Source: an uncultured delta proteobacterium
GTDB lineage: Bacteria > Myxococcota_A > Polyangia > Polyangiales > Polyangiaceae
Reading direction: 5' to 3'
DNA: 64,000 nucleotides
Assembly: GCA_963782055.1 (NCBI GenBank)
Contig: CAWAIF010000003.1
Location: forward strand, 3,328,001-3,392,000
Part shown: positions 26,304-35,223 of the stretch, one piece after another
Layout of the letters: each line of letters begins with the position of its first letter
Numbering within the stretch: the stretch's first letter is position 1
The notes under the pieces: generated by a model
Databases searched by the model: none
What the model was told of the DNA's origin: nothing
The model's input: the letters and a program-made list of their open reading frames with translations, nothing else
Translations under genes and position numbers: made by a program

Positions 26304-29300
26304 GTGAAGTCCGGCTTCGAGGAGGCGCTGGCGCGGGATCTCGCGCCGCTCGGCGACGACGCGGCGAAGGCCACGGCGTTCGTGGTGCGCGGGACGGACG
26401 AGGACGTCCTGGGGCGCGTGGCGGGGGGGAAGCTGCGGCTGAAGGTCCGCGACGCGTGGGGCGCGGAGGGCAGGCGTGCGCTCTTTCTCCTGCTGGAGCA
26501 GGGCGACGCCGGCGTGCTGCGGCGCCTGGGGAGCGTCTGGGCCGCCGCCGCGAAGGGGAGCGGGCACATCCCGGAGCTCGAGGCGGAGCGCTGGGTGGAG
26601 CACGTGGTGTGGGAGTCGTCGGAGCTCTCGCCGAACCACCTCGGCCCGCCGCACACGACCCTCGACGCGCGGATGCTCCCGGACGACGCCGCGTCGTTGC
26701 TGGTGCGCGTGGCGTTGACGCCGGACGAGGATCCGAAGGCCGCCTTCTCCCGCAACTGCTTCGCGACGGCGGTGCTCGCCGCGCCGCACGTGGGGGAGGT
26801 GCTGGTCGCGCACGCGGAGGAGGTGTGTGCGGCGGTCGAGGCGCTCGGCGCGTCGCACCGGGCGACCGCGCTGGAGAGGCTGGAGGCCACCAAGGTCGAT
26901 CCGCTGCCGCTGCTCGCGACGCTCGTGGGGCTCGCGATCGGGGAGGCGAAGACCGTGCGGGTGGCCGCCCTCAAGATGCTCGCGCGCGTCCCGGAGGAGG
27001 CCCGCTCGGCGCTGCGCGCGGCGGCGCTCGACGCGGGACGGCCGGCGGCGGAGCGGACGCACGCGGTGCGGTGCCTCTCGGCGCTGGGGGAGAGTGACGC
27101 GGGCTTCTTCCGCAGGCTCCTCCAGGACGACGCGGCCAAGGCCCTGAAGGACGCCGCGGAGGGCGCGCTGCAGGCGGCGCGCGCCGAGGTGCGCGCGGAG
27201 GTGGGCGACGTGGTGGTCCCGCCGCTGCCGCAGAGCGCCATCACGGCGATCCGGGCGCTCGCCGACGCGTGGGCCACCGAGGCGCCCGCGCGGCTGGCGG
27301 CGCACGCCGCGCGGTTCCCGGCGTTCCGGGCCACCGCGGTGGAGCCGATCACCGAGGAGGAGATCGCCGAGGCCGTGCGCCAGGCCTCCGAGCCCGACCC
27401 GTGGACGCGGGTGCCGGAGTCGGGGCTGGCACGCCTCTTCCGGTCCACCGACTTCCGCGAGGTGCACAGGCTGCTCGCGCGGCCGGACCTTCACCCCGTC
27501 CACGTCGCGCGCCTCTTCCGCATGTTCAATCCGCGGGTGACCGACGAGCACCTCCTGATGCGCCTCGATCCCATCCTGCGCGAGCACCGGGCGCAGGCCC
27601 CGGCTCCGTACCCGCTGCAGACGGTGGAGGTGGCGGCGCGCTACGCGGGGAGCGCGACGCCGCGCGTGGGCATGCTGCTGCTGACGGGGTGGCCCTTCCA
27701 GTGGGGCGAGGAGGTGCAGCGCGCCTACCTGGAGCACAACGTGGACGTGCTGGAGGCGGCGCTCGGCGTGCGGGCGGTGCCCGGCCTGCAGCTCGCGCCC
27801 ATGTACGCCTACTACGCCGGCGACTCCCGCCGGAACGCCCTGGAGCACATCGCGGCGCTGTCGCAGGTCCCCCCGGGCTGCGCCCCGCGGCTCTGGGAGC
27901 TGGCGCTGGAGGGGCCGAAGGCGGAGCGCGCGCCGGCGCAGGCGTGCGTCGCGCGCATCCCGGGCTTCGAGGACAGGCTGCTCGCCGCGATGCACCAGGG
28001 CTCACAGGAGGCGCGCGCGGCGGCGGCGAGGTGGGTCGGCTCCCTGCGGCTGGAGCGCGCGAAGCCGGCGCTGGTGGCGGCGCTGCGCAAGGAGAAGAAG
28101 GACGTCGTTCGCGCCGCGCTCATGGACGCGCTGGAGGCGCTGGGGGAGCCCATCGACGCCTTCGTGGACCGCGCGGGTCTGGCGAAGCGCGCGGAGCAGG
28201 TGCTCTCGAAGGCGGCGTGCCCGGCGCTGGAGTGGCCGGAGATCGCCGCGCTCCCCCCGCTGCGCTGGGGCGACACGGGCGAGGTCGTCGGGGAGCGCGT
28301 GGTCCGCGCGTGGCTCGCCGAGGCGCACAAGCAGAAGAGCCCGGCGGCCTCGCCGGTGATGCGCATCTACGGCCGGTCGCTGCGCGAGGACGACCGGCGC
28401 GCCTTCGCCGAGGCGCTGCTGCGGACGTGGATCGCGCACGACGTGGAGAAGCCCGGCGGCTGGTCGCAGACGGGCTACGACAAGCCGAGCACGGCCATCG
28501 GCGACAAGGGGGTGCTCGCGCTGGTCGCCGCGCTGGGCGGGCGGGAGATCGCGCCTCTCGTCGCCGCGTACCTCCGGGAGTGGTACGGCGTGCGCGCGGC
28601 GCAGTGCAAGGCGCTGGTGCAGATGCTCGCGTGGGTGGAGGACCGCGGGGCGGTGCAGGTGCTGCTCGCGACAGGTACGCGCTTCCGCACCGCGGGGATC
28701 CGCAAGGAGGCGGAGGCGCAGGCGCGCGAGCTCGCCGAGCGCAAGGGCTGGACGCTCGACGAGCTGGCCGACCGCACCGTGCCCACCGCCGGCCTGGACG
28801 ACCGCGGGGAGCTGGAGCTGGACTACGGCGCGAGGCGCTTCCGCGCGCGGCTGGGCGAGTCGCTCGAGCTGGTGCTCACCGACGACACGGGCGCGGTGCT
28901 CAAGGCGCCGCCCGGCCCTCGCAAGGACGAGGACGCGGCCGTCGTGAAGGCGGCACGCGCGGGGTTCGCGCGGTCGAAGAAGGAGCTCGCCACCATCCTC
29001 AAGATGCAGTCCGCCCGCTTCTACGAGGCGATGTGCACGCAGCGCGCGTGGCCCGCCGCCGACTGGAAGGACTTCGTGATGGGGCACCCGGTGCTCTCGC
29101 GGCTGGCGATGGGGGTGGTGTGGTCCGTCGAGGACGGCGGCCGGACGGCGAGCTTCCGCCCGCTGGGGGACGGCGCGCTCTCGGCGGCGGATCACGCCGA
29201 CGTGCCGCTGGGCGACGCGGGCGTCGTGCGCGTGGCGCACCCGGTCCACCTGTCCGACGCCGAGGCGGCGGCGTGGCTGGAGCATCTGCGCGACTTCGAG

Positions 29301-29729
29301 CTGCTGCCGCTCTTCGTCCAGTTCGGCCGTCGGGTCTACCGGCTGCCGGAGGAGCGCGCGCGCGCCGAGGCGCTGGAGGACTTCCGCGGCCACATGATCG
29401 AGGCGTTCAAGCTGCGCGGACGGGCGACGAGGCTCGGCTACGCGCGCGGCGCGACGGAGGACGGCGGCTGGTTCTATGCCTACGAGAAGGTGTTCCCGTC
29501 CCTCGGCCTGACGGTGGCGCTCGGCTTCAGCGGCAACGCCTTGCCGGAGGAGAACCGGACGGTCGCGCTCGGCGAGGTGCGGTTCGAGCGGCGGCACGGC
29601 CAGCGCGCGGTTGGGGCGAAGCTGGGCGAGGTGCCCGCCGTGCTGCTGAGCGAGGCTCGCGCGGACATGGAGGAGCTGGCGGGGGAGGGGACCGGCTTCG
29701 ACCCCGACTGGAAGAGCAAGGTGCGGTAG
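26304..29729 (+). CDS. DUF4132-domain (MolR-like) protein with HEAT-like repeats
   Basis: C-terminal GWTLDELADRTVPTAGLD..LDYGARRF..HPVL..VAHPVHL..WLEHLRDFELLPLFVQFGR..VPAVLLSE is a typical DUF4132 pattern. Confidence 0.8.
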   Translation: MKSGFEEALARDLAPLGDDAAKATAFVVRGTDEDVLGRVAGGKLRLKVRDAWGAEGRRALFLLLEQGDAGVLRRLGSVWAAAAKGSGHIPELEAERWVEHVVWESSELSPNHLGPPHTTLDARMLPDDAASLLVRVALTPDEDPKAAFSRNCFATAVLAAPHVGEVLVAHAEEVCAAVEALGASHRATALERLEATKVDPLPLLATLVGLAIGEAKTVRVAALKMLARVPEEARSALRAAALDAGRPAAERTHAVRCLSALGESDAGFFRRLLQDDAAKALKDAAEGALQAARAEVRAEVGDVVVPPLPQSAITAIRALADAWATEAPARLAAHAARFPAFRATAVEPITEEEIAEAVRQASEPDPWTRVPESGLARLFRSTDFREVHRLLARPDLHPVHVARLFRMFNPRVTDEHLLMRLDPILREHRAQAPAPYPLQTVEVAARYAGSATPRVGMLLLTGWPFQWGEEVQRAYLEHNVDVLEAALGVRAVPGLQLAPMYAYYAGDSRRNALEHIAALSQVPPGCAPRLWELALEGPKAERAPAQACVARIPGFEDRLLAAMHQGSQEARAAAARWVGSLRLERAKPALVAALRKEKKDVVRAALMDALEALGEPIDAFVDRAGLAKRAEQVLSKAACPALEWPEIAALPPLRWGDTGEVVGERVVRAWLAEAHKQKSPAASPVMRIYGRSLREDDRRAFAEALLRTWIAHDVEKPGGWSQTGYDKPSTAIGDKGVLALVAALGGREIAPLVAAYLREWYGVRAAQCKALVQMLAWVEDRGAVQVLLATGTRFRTAGIRKEAEAQARELAERKGWTLDELADRTVPTAGLDDRGELELDYGARRFRARLGESLELVLTDDTGAVLKAPPGPRKDEDAAVVKAARAGFARSKKELATILKMQSARFYEAMCTQRAWPAADWKDFVMGHPVLSRLAMGVVWSVEDGGRTASFRPLGDGALSAADHADVPLGDAGVVRVAHPVHLSDAEAAAWLEHLRDFELLPLFVQFGRRVYRLPEERARAEALEDFRGHMIEAFKLRGRATRLGYARGATEDGGWFYAYEKVFPSLGLTVALGFSGNALPEENRTVALGEVRFERRHGQRAVGAKLGEVPAVLLSEARADMEELAGEGTGFDPDWKSKVR

Positions 29730-29975: not shown

Positions 29976-30047
29976 GGGCGGGTAGCTCAGCGGTAGAGCG
30001 CTGGCCTTACAAGCCGGATGTCGCAGGTTCGAGCCCTGTCCCGCCCA
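29976..30047 (+). tRNA. tRNA-Val (TAC), CCA not encoded
   Basis: Acceptor GGGCGGG/CCCGCCC, D-arm GCTC..GAGC, anticodon loop CT-TAC-AA, T-arm GCAGG-TTCGAGC-CCTGT, discriminator A. Confidence 0.97.
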
Positions 30048-30090
30048 CGCTTCTCGGGTCGTTCAGGGTCGTCACTCGGTCGTTCACGTT

Positions 30091-30167
<77 letters not shown>

Positions 30168-30250: not shown

Positions 30251-30454
30251 TCATGCGTGGGCGTGCCCGGTGTCGCCTTCCCAGCCCTCGATGAGGGCGA
30301 CGGGGAAGAGGGCCAGCAGCGTGGCCGTCAGCACGAAGAGCGCGAACGGCGAGATGAAGGCGAGAGAGAGGACGAACAGCGGCTTCTGCCAGCGCGGCAT
30401 TCCCGCGAAGGTGTGCCGCAAGGCGCGCCAGGGGTGAAGCTTCTCGCGTTTCAT
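30251..30454 (-). CDS. Small membrane protein (67 aa)
   Basis: SD AAGGAG 5 nt before ATG; hydrophobic segment LFVLSLAFISPFALFVLTATLLALFPVALI; ends GHAHA. Confidence 0.72.
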   Translation of the reverse strand: MKREKLHPWRALRHTFAGMPRWQKPLFVLSLAFISPFALFVLTATLLALFPVALIEGWEGDTGHAHA

Positions 30455-30672: not shown

Positions 30673-31035
30673 TCACTGCTTGGTGATCGTGTCGATCATC
30701 CGCCGCCCGTCATCGGTCTCGGTGAAGCGGAAGCTCACGTGGTCGCCCACGGCGATGCGGTCGAGCTGGTGCGTCGTGCGCGGCTCGAAGGACATGGTCA
30801 TCGCCTTCATGTAGCCGGGGATGTCCTCGTGGGCGATGTTGACGAAGTTGCGCGAGGGGCCGAACGACTTGACCACGCCCCGCGCGTCGTAGGTGTGCCC
30901 CTCCAGGAGCGGCGCCTCGTGCTCGCTCCGCGCCTCGTGCGCGGCGAGCGCGGCCGTTCCGGCCACGCAGAGCACCAGCCCCACCGAGAGCAAGATCCCA
31001 CCGAGCTTCGTCATGTGCTTCGTCCCTCGAGTCAT
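30673..31035 (-). CDS. CusF-like periplasmic copper-binding protein (start 31035 or 31014)
   Basis: Signal peptide, then ARGVVKSF..VNIAHEDIPGYMKAMTMSF..VGDHVSFRF (His plus Met-x-Met Cu(I) site of the CusF OB fold). Confidence 0.85.
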   Translation of the reverse strand: MTRGTKHMTKLGGILLSVGLVLCVAGTAALAAHEARSEHEAPLLEGHTYDARGVVKSFGPSRNFVNIAHEDIPGYMKAMTMSFEPRTTHQLDRIAVGDHVSFRFTETDDGRRMIDTITKQ

Positions 31036-31074
31036 GGGTCACCAGTCCTGGCGCATCTTAAGGCAGCGCGCCCG

Positions 31075-31989
31075 TCAAAACCACGTGTGCACCAGCGTCC
31101 AGTTGAGCCCGAGCGTCGCCGGCTGGTTGCGGCCGAGCCCGGGAGGCACCCACGCGATGCCGGTCTGCATGCGCCAGGTGTCGGAGACGGGGAAGACGGC
31201 GCCGGCGCCCAGCGTCAGGGCGTAGCGCTCGGAGTCCGGCGCGTCGCGGCCGTCGATCGTCGCGTCGCCCTCGTAGGCGAAGGACGCCGAGAGGGCGAGC
31301 GCGATGCCCTCGAAGGTCACGTAGGTGAGCGCGCCCAGCACGCTGATCTGCGGTGCCTCGGTCTCGCTGACCGCGCCCACCGTGCGCGAGGTGCGCGCGG
31401 CGAGGATGCCGGAGAGGTCGACCAGCCACGGCCCCAGGGCCTTCTCGAGCGAGAGGCCGCCGTTGATCTGGAAGGCGCCGATGCCGGTGGCGCCCGCGGC
31501 GAGCGGGCCGGACGCGGACTCCGGCGGCACCCCGGTCGGGAAGGTGATCCCGGCGAGGACCGCGATGCCGGGTACGTACTGCTTCTCCGCCGCCTCGAGG
31601 AAGTCGTAGCGCGCGCTCAGGTTGGCGTCGCCGAAGCCGCCGCCGAAGTCGGTCGTCGCGCCGGCCTTGCGCCGCGTCTCGACGAAGGGGACCAGCGCGG
31701 CGATCTGCGCGCGGCGGAAGAGGCGGACGGCCCCGAAGAGGTCCTGCTCCAGGTCCCACTCGGTGGTGCCCGCCGGGGGCGTGACGTAGTGGCCGCCGGC
31801 GTCGAAGGAGCCGACCAGCGAGCCGAGGCGGAGCTGGGCGCCGACGAGCGCCTTCTCGTGCATGGCGAGGCGTCCGGGGGTGACCGCGCCGGTGCCCGCG
31901 CAGCACGCCTGCGCCCTCGCGCTCCGCGCCCCGGAGAGGCACGCGACCGCGAGGGCCAGGCCGACGGCGGCAGCCCTAGCGGACGACAA
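31075..31989 (-). CDS. Putative outer-membrane beta-barrel transporter with N-terminal Cys-Cys motif
   Basis: Signal peptide ARA|QACCAG; LVPFV..GFGDANLSARY..FPTG..TGIG pattern (MetA/phenol-degradation-like barrel); alternating amphipathic strands; terminal Phe (HTWF). Confidence 0.7.
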   Translation of the reverse strand: MSSARAAAVGLALAVACLSGARSARAQACCAGTGAVTPGRLAMHEKALVGAQLRLGSLVGSFDAGGHYVTPPAGTTEWDLEQDLFGAVRLFRRAQIAALVPFVETRRKAGATTDFGGGFGDANLSARYDFLEAAEKQYVPGIAVLAGITFPTGVPPESASGPLAAGATGIGAFQINGGLSLEKALGPWLVDLSGILAARTSRTVGAVSETEAPQISVLGALTYVTFEGIALALSASFAYEGDATIDGRDAPDSERYALTLGAGAVFPVSDTWRMQTGIAWVPPGLGRNQPATLGLNWTLVHTWF

Positions 31990-32407
31990 CGCTCAGCACC
32001 GTGGTGTCGGCGGTCTGGCCCTGCGTCGCGGCGTGGAGGTCCCACGTCCCGGGCATGAACAGGTCCACGTCGGTAGCCACGTAGCGGCCGGAGCCGAGCG
32101 CGGTGACCGTGGGAACCACCGACGTGCCGTGGCCCATCGTCGGCATCCACGGCGTGACGGTCATGGTGAGGCCATCCACCGGTTGCGAGCTCGCGGCGTC
32201 CTGCACGGTGAGCTCCACCGCGTTGACGCCGCGCACGATGCCGGTGTCCTGGGCGCGCAGGGTGAGCTGCAGCGCCCCGGAGTCGCTCGTCGCGCTGTCC
32301 AGCGCAGCCGGCGCGAAGCGCAGGCTCGCCGGATTGGCCGTGGTCGGTCCGGACGAGGCGCACGCGACGGCGCCGAGCAGCATGGCGCCTGCCAGCCAGG
32401 GTCTCAC
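31976..32407 (-). CDS. YtkA/FixH-like lipoprotein
   Basis: Lipobox AVA-C; PWMPTMGHG metal motif; GRY..LFMPGTW. GTG overlaps the upstream stop (GTGA). Confidence 0.82.
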   Translation of the reverse strand: MRPWLAGAMLLGAVACASSGPTTANPASLRFAPAALDSATSDSGALQLTLRAQDTGIVRGVNAVELTVQDAASSQPVDGLTMTVTPWMPTMGHGTSVVPTVTALGSGRYVATDVDLFMPGTWDLHAATQGQTADTTVLSVVVR

Positions 32408-33027
32408 GGGACGCTCACGTAGAACGCCGCGTGGCCGTGAGGCGAGTCCTCGGTGTCCGTGCACTCCTCGCGGAAGTGGAAGCGCACCGTCCACTGCCCC
32501 GGCTTGTCGAAGCGGATGGGCCCGACGGTGTAGACGCCGGGGGAGGTCTCCGTCGCGTGCGGCGAGGAGTTGGGCGCCGGGTGGGTGTCGTTGAGGAACA
32601 CCTCCAGGTCCGGGTTGGCGTCGGTGAGCGGCGTGCCGTCCACCTTGGTCGTGGCGGTGACGGTGAAGGTCACGTCGGCGTTCTCGCAGACGGGGCTGGA
32701 CGACCACTTCACGTGGTACTTGCAGTCGTCGTCGTCGCCCTCCTGGTTGAACATGGTATCGCCGTAGTCCCCCGTCGCGCCGGCGTCGGGATCGGCCGCG
32801 CCGGCGTCGGCGGTGCAGGCCGCGGGGTCGACGGTCACGACGATCGGCCCGGCGTCGCCGCTGCAGTGGGTGTCGGCGGCGCCGGAGACCGGGCCTCCGG
32901 GGGTGGAGCAACTGGCGTTGTCGCTGGACGTGGAGCACGCGGCGATGACGACGGCGAGCGCGGCGATCGCGCCCGCGGTCCGGATGGAACCTCGAGACGA
33001 AGACAACGAATGGACGTGTACGGACAT
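32404..33027 (-). CDS. YtkA/FixH-like Cys/His-containing lipoprotein
   Basis: SD GGAGG; lipobox IAA-C; DDDDCKYHV, THPAPN, PGVYTVGPIRFDKPGQWTVRFH, SPHGHAAF. Confidence 0.75.
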   Translation of the reverse strand: MSVHVHSLSSSRGSIRTAGAIAALAVVIAACSTSSDNASCSTPGGPVSGAADTHCSGDAGPIVVTVDPAACTADAGAADPDAGATGDYGDTMFNQEGDDDDCKYHVKWSSSPVCENADVTFTVTATTKVDGTPLTDANPDLEVFLNDTHPAPNSSPHATETSPGVYTVGPIRFDKPGQWTVRFHFREECTDTEDSPHGHAAFYVSVP

Positions 33028-33083
33028 GCAGGCCTCCTGCAGACGTGGGAACGTGCGCGCGGACCCCCACCGCGCGAGGTGGA

Positions 33084-33503
33084 TCACGCCGCGAGGGCTC
33101 GAGGAGGCGGGGTGGGCGGCTCGTCCGGACCGCGGGAGCGAAGGGGCAACGGCTGCGGCGCGCGCGTCACCGTGACCACGCGCGGGAGGGGAGCCAGCTC
33201 GGCGGTGAGCCCGGCGGGGCTGCACGTCGGCAGCGCGGGGGCCGGCGCGGGCGGGTCGGTGTCGCAGGTGGAGTGGATGACCGGGTAGGGCGTGGCGCGC
33301 CGCTCCAGCAGGCGCTCGTGCGCCAGAGCCTCGCACTCCGGGCAGTGGCACTCCCCCATCTTCATCCCGCACATGCAGTGATGCTCCTGCACGCCACCCA
33401 GCGCGCGGATCACCGGCATCGTCGCGGGGCCCAGCCACACGGGCGCCAGTACCACGAGCAAGCAGCAGAGCTTGACCACGGCGTGCACCGCAGCCCTGGA
33501 CAT
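33084..33503 (-). CDS. DUF2946/CutF/CruR-like Cys-rich leader protein with C-terminal polyproline motif (139 aa)
   Basis: Hydrophobic N-terminus, HHCMCGMKMGECHCPEC, Pro-rich linker, terminal EPPTPPPR; first gene of the Cu operon. Confidence 0.72.
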   Translation of the reverse strand: MSRAAVHAVVKLCCLLVVLAPVWLGPATMPVIRALGGVQEHHCMCGMKMGECHCPECEALAHERLLERRATPYPVIHSTCDTDPPAPAPALPTCSPAGLTAELAPLPRVVTVTRAPQPLPLRSRGPDEPPTPPPRALAA

Positions 33504-33546
33504 CCTGCGCGGTCTCGCGGAGAGGGCCCGCGCCACCACCGACCGC

Positions 33547-33580
33547 GCGTCGGATTGCAAGGACCCTTGCAATGCGACGC
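33547..33580. promoter_or_regulatory. 34-bp near-perfect palindrome, putative repressor operator
   Basis: GCGTCG-g-ATTGCAAGG-ac-CCTTGCAAT-g-CGACGC in the divergent intergenic region, 44-77 bp upstream of the leader ORF. Confidence 0.65.
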
Positions 33581-33780
33581 CAGGCCGCGGGAAACGGCCA
33601 CGGACCACGCCATCCGACCCTGGCCGAAGGCCGGGCGACGGCTGCAGAGGCGCGCAGAGGAAGGGCCGCCAGGGCATCACGGCTCCTCTGCTATAGATGC
33701 GGGTCGCGCCCGGGGCAAGTCGGCTCATGTGGACTTCCCGCGCGCGATCCCTTATTTCAAGGGCCCCAGAGGACACCCCG

Positions 33781-34008: not shown

Positions 34009-34048
34009 CCTCACCCTCCGCCCCTCTCTCCACTGCCTGGAGAGGGGG
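34009..34048. repeat. REP-like palindromic element, copy 1
   Basis: CCTCACCC..CCCCTCTCTCCA-ctgcc-TGGAGAGGGG; similar to 47489-47532; at a convergent junction. Confidence 0.65.
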
Positions 34049-34892
34049 AGGAGAAGGAGGCGAGGAGGGTGCGGTAGGCGGGCTCGGCTTCGGGGAGGCC
34101 GATGGCCACCAGACCCGGGACCACGTCCTCCTCCATGCCGTCGAAGAAGGCGCGCGCGTAGCCGGCGTCGGTGAGCGTGCCGAAGTTGGGCTCGGGCTGC
34201 GCCTCCGGCTCGCCGCGCGCCCACTCCGGCCCGCGGGTGGCGAGGCACAGGCGTGCAAAGTGGGCGAAGAGGCCCGGCAGCTCGCCGGCGAGGCGATCGC
34301 GCTCGCCAGGGTCCGCCTCACGCATCAGCAGGGCGCCCGCCTCCCAGCCGAACTCGCCGTGGAAGGTCTCGTCGACCAGGATGGCCGACACCACCTCCCG
34401 CGCCAGCGGCACGGTGGCCGCGCGCAGCGCGCGCCGGAACATGCGGCCGCTCAGCGTCTCGCCGATGCAGAAGGCGGCGACGAGCATCTGTCGGACGTGC
34501 TCGCGCAGCGAGGCGCCGGCCACCTCGTGGTGGAGGGCGTCGGCGTCGACCTCCGGCGCGGCGGGTCGGCCGAAGGCCTCGCACATGCGCATGCACAGAT
34601 CCGTGTGGCGGACCTCGTCGGCGATCATCCGGGCGAAGGCGCCGGACCAGTCGAGCGGCGCGCCGAGGAGCTGCACGTGGGCCGCCAGCTCGGTGAAGAG
34701 GGTCAGCGAGTGGAGCTCCTGCACCGCCCGCGTGCGCCAGAGGAGCGCGGCGTCGTCGAGCGCGTGGGCGTCGTAGCCCGCCGGATCGAACGCCTCGAAG
34801 TGGACCTCGCCCCGGCGCGGTCGCACCAGGAGCTCGTGCTCCTCGGTCAGCGCGAGGTCCTCGCCGCTGCTGCGGCGCAGCGTGAAGGTCAC
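34011..34892 (-). CDS. Ferritin-like di-iron four-helix-bundle protein (about 293 aa)
   Basis: Ligand pattern E(QELHS)..DEVRH..E(GETL)..DETFH; GTG start 13 nt after the upstream stop. Confidence 0.82.
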   Translation of the reverse strand: MTFTLRRSSGEDLALTEEHELLVRPRRGEVHFEAFDPAGYDAHALDDAALLWRTRAVQELHSLTLFTELAAHVQLLGAPLDWSGAFARMIADEVRHTDLCMRMCEAFGRPAAPEVDADALHHEVAGASLREHVRQMLVAAFCIGETLSGRMFRRALRAATVPLAREVVSAILVDETFHGEFGWEAGALLMREADPGERDRLAGELPGLFAHFARLCLATRGPEWARGEPEAQPEPNFGTLTDAGYARAFFDGMEEDVVPGLVAIGLPEAEPAYRTLLASFSSPSPGSGERGGG

Positions 34893-34905
34893 GGCGCCTT
34901 GCGCG

Positions 34906-35223
34906 CTACCGGGGGAGGCCCCTGGGCGGGGCGTTGATGATGCGCGGGCGGAAGCTCGGCGGGCCGCTCGGCGCGGGCGCCGCGCTGGCGGAGCCGGACG
35001 GCGCGGCGGACGGGGCCGCGCTGTCCGACGGCGCGGGGGTGGCGGTCGCGTTGGTGTGGACCTGCTCGGTCGGCGCCGGCCCGTTGACGTGCGGCTCGGA
35101 GGTGTCCGGCGCGTTGACGCCCGGCGGGTTGTCCTTGGTGCAGGCCACCGCGAGGGTGCCGATGCCCACGAGCGCCACGCCTCGGGTGAGGGCGGTGAGC
35201 CGTTGGAGTCGATGACGTCGCAT
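34906..35223 (-). CDS. Small disordered lipoprotein with repeated xN(A/G)P motifs (105 aa)
   Basis: Arg-rich N-terminus, lipobox AVA-C, motifs GVNAP, HVNGP, HTNAT, IINAP; TAGGCT 6 nt before ATG. Confidence 0.72.
   Translation of the reverse strand: MRRHRLQRLTALTRGVALVGIGTLAVACTKDNPPGVNAPDTSEPHVNGPAPTEQVHTNATATPAPSDSAAPSAAPSGSASAAPAPSGPPSFRPRIINAPPRGLPR

Follow-up and report, generated by a model that had tools for sequence, protein, structure and literature searches.

A TonB-independent YtkA lipoprotein and di-cysteine barrel module, probably copper-handling, with a candidate arrest-peptide leader in Myxococcota

How copper crosses the outer membrane to oxidases and nitrous oxide (N2O) reductase without receptors of the OprC/NosA type is a largely open question, and it is raised by an operon in a 64,000-nucleotide (nt) stretch of DNA, here called the window, from an uncultured member of the Polyangiaceae (Myxococcota; positions 3,328,001 to 3,392,000 of contig CAWAIF010000003.1, assembly GCA_963782055.1). 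Five co-oriented minus-strand open reading frames (ORFs) at 30673..33503 encode, in order, a small leader protein, two lipoproteins of the YtkA family (YtkA-1 and YtkA-2), an outer-membrane barrel with an N-terminal pair of cysteines and a CusF-family periplasmic protein. Neighbors among the middle three genes share 4 nt (32404-32407) and 14 nt (31976-31989). This arrangement and the metal-ligand motifs reported in a preliminary description of the sequence were all found again by ORF calling and Pfam searches, and the window's gene calls likewise contain no CusCBA pump, P-type ATPase or multicopper oxidase. With a probability of about one half, the operon encodes an envelope pathway, independent of TonB, through which periplasmic copper enzymes receive their metal, and is switched on by ribosome stalling in the leader.

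What is conserved is the pairing of a YtkA lipoprotein with a Cys-Cys barrel, usually followed by a thioredoxin-like gene, rather than the five-gene string. Three sets of loci were surveyed: 80 of 90 matches from a search of the phylum, 80 loci from a GTDB scan (the best 80 of 129) and 8 metagenome loci. Locus counts are from six-frame profile or BLAST searches; the gene caller, trained on the GC-rich source genome, misses genes in low-GC loci. Neighbor counts for 165 loci, after removal of three duplicates, are from BLAST. The gene directly upstream of the barrel is of the YtkA-2 type at 66/80, 70/80 and 6/8 loci of the three sets, respectively. Among the GTDB loci, 67/80 have a thioredoxin-like (AhpC/TSA) gene, which comes immediately after the barrel at 58/80; YtkA-1 is found at 48/80, a small CxxCH lipoprotein at 40/80, the leader at 20/80 and a multiheme cytochrome at 16/80. 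The order leader, YtkA-1, YtkA-2, barrel occurs at 12 of these 80 loci and the five-gene order ending in CusF at none of them, CusF itself being near only 4/80 loci (5/165 overall). In the window, the thioredoxin-like gene that usually follows the barrel is missing and CusF occupies its place, so the window is one arrangement of a modular system. Of the operon as first proposed, then, the YtkA-barrel core has strong synteny and the full gene order does not. Its description as lacking a TonB receptor is accurate for the unit, and the module is TonB-independent, although TonB-receptor-like genes lie near 10/165 loci.

Barrel relatives were found in 83/401 genomes of a phylum sample and 84/151 of a family sample, which argues that the arrangement is not due to chance; the closest belong to Polyangiaceae and other Myxococcota. 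The source genome (7.58 Mb, 97% complete) has one barrel copy, one CusF and, elsewhere, a more distant thioredoxin-like gene. Its third type of YtkA stands together with a multiheme cytochrome and a CxxCH lipoprotein 230 kb from the barrel, beside a small integrated element (G000:C3:3588813-3591028). In a genome of the same genus (G190), the leader-YtkA-1 pair and the barrel are on separate contigs and the barrel has no YtkA neighbor. Three loci (L108:11073-14557; L149:4010-6484; L099) have in common, next to the module, a DUF3570 barrel, DUF4266 and two small Cys/heme proteins.

The AlphaFold2 model of the barrel, based on an alignment of 103 of the 120 listed homologues, has 12 strands and a predicted local distance difference test score (pLDDT) of 93.5. 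Its nearest structures are FapF (Z 28.1) and Pput2725 (Z 26.3), at root mean square deviations of 2.2-2.5, with residues 25-303 aligned to FapF and 34-303 to Pput2725 (PDB 4RL8), while PcoB is much more distant (Z 12.6, rank 23). The family match is marginal, PF13557 being scored at 23.9 bits against a cut-off of 22 and most relatives falling below the cut-off; the YtkA proteins (33 and 40 bits; cut-off 25.9) and CusF (56.8; 27) score more clearly. An N-terminal di-Cys is found at 127/128 loci, the single miss being cut by a contig end, and among 40 weaker loci CC is found in 35 and CxC or CxxC in 5, making 167/168 overall. The mature barrel has no further cysteine at 110/128 loci. Judged from the fold, the pair would be located inside the barrel lumen, although local pLDDT at residues 21-30 is 68. 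A predicted complex of the barrel with YtkA-2 scored 0.30, against a mark of 0.32, and is not used as evidence.

The COG4313/PF13557 channels (Pput2725, FapF (PDB 5O65), SphA and TcpY) share the 12-strand fold and an N-terminal segment before strand 1, which in Pput2725 folds inward from the periplasm to lie in the lumen (PMC4493636). Known members handle hydrophobic solutes or export amyloid, and the available part of the Pput2725 report does not mention cysteine; the window barrel differs in its invariant N-terminal di-Cys, fixed YtkA partner and copper context. PcoB/CopB (PDB 7PGE) is likewise a small TonB-independent barrel and is the precedent for one that moves copper, although the direction is disputed between import (PMC9210255) and efflux (PMC12509749). 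It belongs to another family, has a His/Met N-terminal region instead of a Cys pair and is partnered by the multicopper oxidase PcoA; the window barrel had no CopB Pfam match. Matches in the ESM Atlas were look-alikes only (PF13557 proteins of Myxococcota, Bdellovibrionota and Pseudomonadota), and a search of plasmids with the barrel gave no match. Distant forms outside the phylum include one on a Ralstonia megaplasmid (L227:2-6546), where a CATCGC barrel precedes a thioredoxin-like gene and a nosZ-like gene is 3.4 kb away, and an SCGSANC barrel with TlpA, behind small His/Cys ORFs, in Nitrospirota (L225:5110-8969).

The metal is probably copper. In YtkA-2, M88 is invariant and H93 and M118 are each conserved in at least 90% of 65 sequences, and copper binding by these residues is predicted; YtkA-1 lacks the Met motif. 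The YtkA-2 profile matches a copper resistance protein (PDB 9LL2, E 8e-6), and Helicobacter pylori CrdA, with the Met motif seen in 9LL2, binds Cu(II) with measured micromolar affinity (PMC9182242). To call YtkA proteins established copper chaperones, as was done at first, is nevertheless too strong: deletion of CtaK in Bacillus subtilis is rescued by copper, which is genetic evidence with putative ligands (PMC9145763, PMC13344008), and the fold also occurs in efflux (CrdA, CusB). The module YtkAs share the PF13115 domain, the lipoprotein anchor and conserved Met/His with CtaK/YtkA, the C-terminal domain of B. subtilis YcnJ and CrdA; unlike these, they are coupled to an outer-membrane barrel and comprise three paralogous types. 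In CusF, the His/Met2 site residues H69, M79 and M81 are present, and M76 presumably takes the place of the Trp of Escherichia coli CusF.

Genes beside the module bear on what copper would be for. Among 165 loci, neighbors of the copper-supply kind include NosD (4), NosL (4), Sco (5), MbnH-like (5), MbnP (3), Csp-like (3) and CtaA (2), as well as oxidase I/II subunits with heme O synthase at one locus; YcnI-like genes also occur. CusA and CusC were found at 0/165 loci by BLAST of neighbors, a P1B ATPase is near 2/165, and no multicopper oxidase was verified at the 165 loci, one motif match being unverified. At two loci (L170/L175), the YtkA-barrel pair is the co-oriented tail of a nosD-F-L-Y run, a place that NosA takes in the nos cluster of pseudomonads. 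These neighbors and the nos-run position favor supply to cuproenzymes, and supply is the more probable role than defense. The source genome encodes aa3 and cbb3 oxidases as well as a nos cluster, and a CusA-like pump and two P1B ATPases are located away from the window. The pump (CusC-CusB-CusA-like; G000:C3:5297430-5304512, L228) lies 1.9 Mb away and has no cusF, in contrast to CusCFBA systems, and its CusB carries a YtkA domain. In a reduced low-GC genome of 1.8 Mb (G095; L046:5802-9101), a YtkA-barrel-thioredoxin unit stands head to head with Sco and is also divergent from CcmH; there, MPxMGHG of YtkA is changed to SMVGCGC and the second Met to His.

The first gene of the operon is best read, from its sequence, as a CutF-like arrest-peptide candidate and cis-acting translational sensor rather than as a component of the metal relay. 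It has no Pfam family match. It is shorter than 150 amino acids (139), has PPP at 132-134, within its last 15 residues, and is followed within 1000 nt by a same-strand gene (the gap to YtkA-1 is 56 nt), all features of CutF-like proteins (PMC9973294), and its hydrophobic helix at residues 3-34 is a candidate export signal. The AlphaFold2 model is of low confidence (predicted template modeling score 0.30) and shows two helices only. A profile of 19 leaders, none of which matched DUF2946 (PF11162), retrieved 214 proteins among 50%-identity representatives. The His and Cys cluster (Table 1) and TPPP are invariant in the leader alignment. Among the best 150 of the 214, 132 have both motifs, and a Cys is located 51-55 residues before the third Pro in 129 of these; in 93 leaders with a single candidate Cys, the standard deviation of this spacing is 1.2, versus 2.3 for the spacing just upstream. 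The CxxC lies 69-81 residues upstream of the TPPPR tail. The next same-strand gene is a module gene for 28/29 other leader ORFs, and newly found leaders also head mbnP-mbnH (L216, L222) and small lipoproteins rich in His and Cys. These lipoproteins (C..I..ACH..D...GP.HECH; L214:2047-2865, L224:2054-2368, L186:6245-6580), directly behind the leader, are possible further metal chaperones. Three loci (L102, L108, L128) have two leaders, one per divergent unit.

The codons of the tail suggest how the leader may control the next gene. The third Pro codon is CCT in 22/29 leaders, against 4% genome-wide and 6-8% close to gene ends, and the Arg codon is CGA in 18/26, against 3.9% and 6-8%. In the window, the Pro codons pair with YtkA-1's Shine-Dalgarno (SD) sequence with a computed probability of 0.97, which falls to 0.12 after synonymous recoding. 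The SD is paired to the motif in 15/26 leaders, compared with 2.4 expected after recoding; this set excludes two leaders that had no called start, one that had no SD and one frameshifted copy. Leaders' own pairs were better than swapped pairs (34 of 20000 permutations, a result inflated by kin). The whole intergenic RNA is not unusually stable (z -0.54), and only the specific pairing stands out; use of rare codons as a brake is a partial alternative explanation for the codon bias. A different Cys-Cys leader-like ORF heads the CusCBA-like pump at L228, where a 3' end of CUCCUCC could pair with GGAGGAG of cusC, so that a further family may follow this anti-SD principle.

Transcription of the leader may begin almost at its start codon. 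In-frame GTG and ATG codons at 33680 and 33677 precede the annotated start at 33503, and the true start may be 59 codons further upstream, giving 198 amino acids if the GTG is used. A predicted promoter lies just before this GTG (Table 1); a consensus scan had missed it on the minus strand. At 20/44 leader loci, compared with 0.8 in shuffles, the start is preceded at 6-10 nt by a sigma70-like promoter, which points to leaderless mRNA at those loci, a difference from CutF and CruR.

CutF of Rhodobacter capsulatus and CruR of Bordetella resemble the leader in their place as first gene, a length below 150 amino acids, an export signal (a candidate one in the leader), a Cys cluster, a C-terminal PP and a conserved spacing. 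CutF ends in PEPEGPPPRL; in the presence of copper it stalls on PPP, and the stem-loop that covers the next SD is thereby opened (PMC9973294, 10.1101/2025.02.05.636593), whereas in the leader the predicted anti-SD site is in the Pro codons themselves and not in an intergenic stem-loop. CruR instead uses Rho termination, with RAPP in common codons, and has a ruler of 45 residues from CXXC to RAPP that matters for its regulation (PMC9426467); in the leader, the cluster is H-C-C..C-C..C and the distance is 52-53 residues from a single last Cys. The PPPR tail is like that of CutF, and the cargo (MbnPH, AhpC/TSA, Sco) is like that of CruR, which also heads genes of the mbnP-mbnH type (PMC9426467). 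TonB-dependent copper receptors behind CruR (OprC, NosA, BfrG) share leader-headed operons with copper chaperones, but the present unit has no 22-strand receptor, plug domain or TonB box, its barrel having 304 residues and 12 strands. Polarity of the leader is ambiguous because its cargo resembles that of CruR operons while its tail resembles CutF. Release of the stall by copper, the polarity of CruR and the one expected for a supply role, has about an even chance of being correct, copper-induced stalling in the manner of CutF is a serious possibility somewhat short of that, and control by redox alone is improbable.

In a mechanism consistent with these features, the N-terminal segment of the barrel would, like that of Pput2725, plug the lumen at its periplasmic side. 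Copper would be captured at the barrel exit by the Cys pair and passed to YtkA-2, YtkA-1 and, here, CusF, and this chain would deliver it to assembly factors of the Sco/NosL type, with the usual thioredoxin-like partner keeping the thiols reduced. The leader would be exported co-translationally, and a ribosome paused on PPP would cover the anti-SD and free the SD of the next gene, so that the stalled state is ON. With the 52-53 residue spacing, the last Cys would stand just where the translocon opens to the periplasm; if it bound metal or entered a disulfide there, the resulting pull would free the chain and end the stall.

Several observations weigh against a copper-supply route controlled in this way. 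Neighbors of the supply type are present at a minority of loci, most loci having no informative neighbor, and the loci are phylogenetically related. The cargo of characterized COG4313 channels is hydrophobic solutes or amyloid subunits, and hydrophilic solutes pass poorly through Pput2725 (PMC4493636). The support for the leader model was weaker in held-out leaders, of which 5/15 were paired (1.2 expected) and 5/15 had CCT, some starts probably being miscalled, and masking of a ribosome footprint raises SD opening in the window only from 0.03 to 0.28. The TPPPR tail matches that of the copper-induced CutF and not RAPP of CruR (10.1101/2025.02.05.636593), which by analogy would favor copper induction.

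Other points against supply are those on which a copper-induced buffering or detoxification system would be built, in which copper holds the leader stalled, as for CutF, and the YtkAs and CusF sequester periplasmic copper, which then leaves either by way of CusCBA in trans or via the barrel, as proposed for Caulobacter PcoB. Besides the candidate export signal, the tail and the predicted hidden SD of the leader, the YtkA fold is found in CrdA and in the CusB of the source genome; the fifth gene of the window encodes an efflux-type chaperone, the sole CusF of a genome whose CusCBA lacks one, which it may serve; and at one locus (L139) the leader-YtkA-barrel-thioredoxin run continues into copZ-copA, while a P1B ATPase adjoins another (L098). 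Detoxification is nonetheless unlikely, though it survives better than the other alternatives, in view of the near absence of CusA and P1B neighbors, the nos, Sco, MbnPH and oxidase genes found instead, and the retention of the unit beside Sco in a reduced genome of 1.8 Mb.

Less likely still is that redox equivalents or proteins, and not metal, pass the barrel, which would then be a thiol relay or an exporter like FapF and would act together with the thioredoxin-like protein and the mono- and multiheme cytochrome lipoproteins, while the leader senses the periplasmic disulfide state in parallel to RegB/RegA. The frequency of thioredoxin-like, CxxCH lipoprotein and multiheme cytochrome genes in the GTDB set and the closeness of the barrel to an amyloid exporter fit this idea, as does the near-exclusive distribution of the leader (26/165 loci) and a RegB/RegA-like pair (49/165), which occur together at one locus. 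A RegA-like gene was found in 3/19 leader genomes, compared with 83/132 others (relatedness ignored), and the source genome has none, while the barrel is present in 18/19 leader genomes; the pair is called RegB/RegA-like because these best families score below the NCBIfam equivalog cut-offs (238 vs 350 and 177 vs 250 bits). Outside the home family, however, cytochromes are nearly missing (4/80 phylum loci) while YtkA persists, Met/His/Cys exchanges in YtkA suggest a soft-metal site, and the neighbors are copper-specific. That the same architecture serves a metal other than copper (Zn, Ag, Cd, Hg or Ni) is the least probable reading, for although zinc could be the ligand of the leader cluster, with its one His and five invariant Cys, Hg and Cd are also bound by vicinal Cys pairs, a NicO-like permease is near 3 loci and some CutF-like leaders head Ni/Co genes (PMC9973294), the Met-rich YtkA, CusF and the Sco, NosD/L, MbnP, Csp-like, YcnI-like and CopA neighbors are of the copper type.

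Table 1. Features of the operon and its upstream region, in window coordinates
Feature	Position	Strand	Characteristics
Predicted sigma70-like promoter	33690..33718	-	TTGCCC-N17-TATAGC, 9 nt before in-frame GTG 33680
Palindrome	33540..33587		23-nt arms, between promoter and leader core; 1 of 10 intergenic copies of a genome repeat
Leader (P0001)	33084..33503	-	139 aa; N-terminal hydrophobic helix, H41-C43-C45..C54-C57..C80, C-terminal TPPPR
Anti-Shine-Dalgarno	33102..33108	-	GCCUCCU, from Pro132-Pro134 codons; predicted pairing
Shine-Dalgarno of YtkA-1	33032..33038	-	AGGAGGC; predicted sequestered
YtkA-1 lipoprotein (P0002)	32404..33027	-	DDDCKY, RFH and SPHGH conserved, Met motif absent; lipobox Cys31 (read by eye)
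YtkA-2 lipoprotein (P0003)	31976..32407	-	GTG start; lipobox Cys16 (read by eye); M88-P-x-M-G-H93 and M118; CrdA/CtaK-like
Outer-membrane barrel (P0004)	31075..31989	-	304 aa, TTG start; 12 strands, COG4313/FapF fold; mature N-terminus Q27-A-C29-C30
CusF-family periplasmic protein (P0005)	30673..31035 (or ..31014)	-	H69, M76, M79, M81; motif H69-EDIPGY-MKAMTM; accessory

The palindrome upstream of the leader was considered as an operator and rejected, as it is a dispersed intergenic repeat (core TGCAAG-4-CTTGCA, some of the 10 genome copies having long shared flanks) and is missing upstream of other leaders. Just upstream of the operon (34011-35223), a ferritin-like gene with a weak AurF match stands behind a Pro-rich lipoprotein ending in PPRGLPR. 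Downstream, a 67-residue hydrophobic ORF without a family and tRNA-Val/tRNA-Asp genes on the other strand (29976-30167, 30251-30454) separate the operon from a DUF-type gene at 26304-29729.

Every part of the operon is of a known kind (COG4313 fold, YtkA/CrdA, CusF, CutF-like leader). The preliminary description did not recognize the architecture as described, and no account of an envelope-located, probably copper-handling TonB-independent module of this composition was found in the literature; the di-Cys COG4313 subfamily, its coupling to YtkA and the leader family were not found described, although protein lists of the CutF paper may include some leaders; supplements of the CruR and CutF papers gave 0 matches, the full CutF list probably not being covered. 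The curA operon of Myxococcus xanthus was considered as the same system and rejected, its nine genes, in the available part of the report, lacking these families (PMC3707914).

More tentatively, the module may represent a widespread, undescribed class of TonB-independent copper importers, in which a 12-strand barrel gated by a Cys pair hands copper directly to a lipoprotein chaperone and replaces NosA/OprC across Myxococcota, with distant CxxC forms beside nosZ/TlpA elsewhere. On this broader view, the leaders would be new transmembrane force sensors, in which one run of codons is both arrest motif and anti-SD and which replace a RegB/RegA-like system lineage by lineage. For copper entry without OprC/NosA-type receptors, the module offers a two-gene candidate with invariant residues for mutation. 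If the supply reading is true, metal transport would be added to the functions of the COG4313 fold, with a bearing on N2O reduction by soil myxobacteria. The leader would constitute a third design of metal-sensing arrest peptide, with a fixed ruler and a codon-encoded anti-SD, and it bears on the cause of the opposite copper responses of CutF and CruR.

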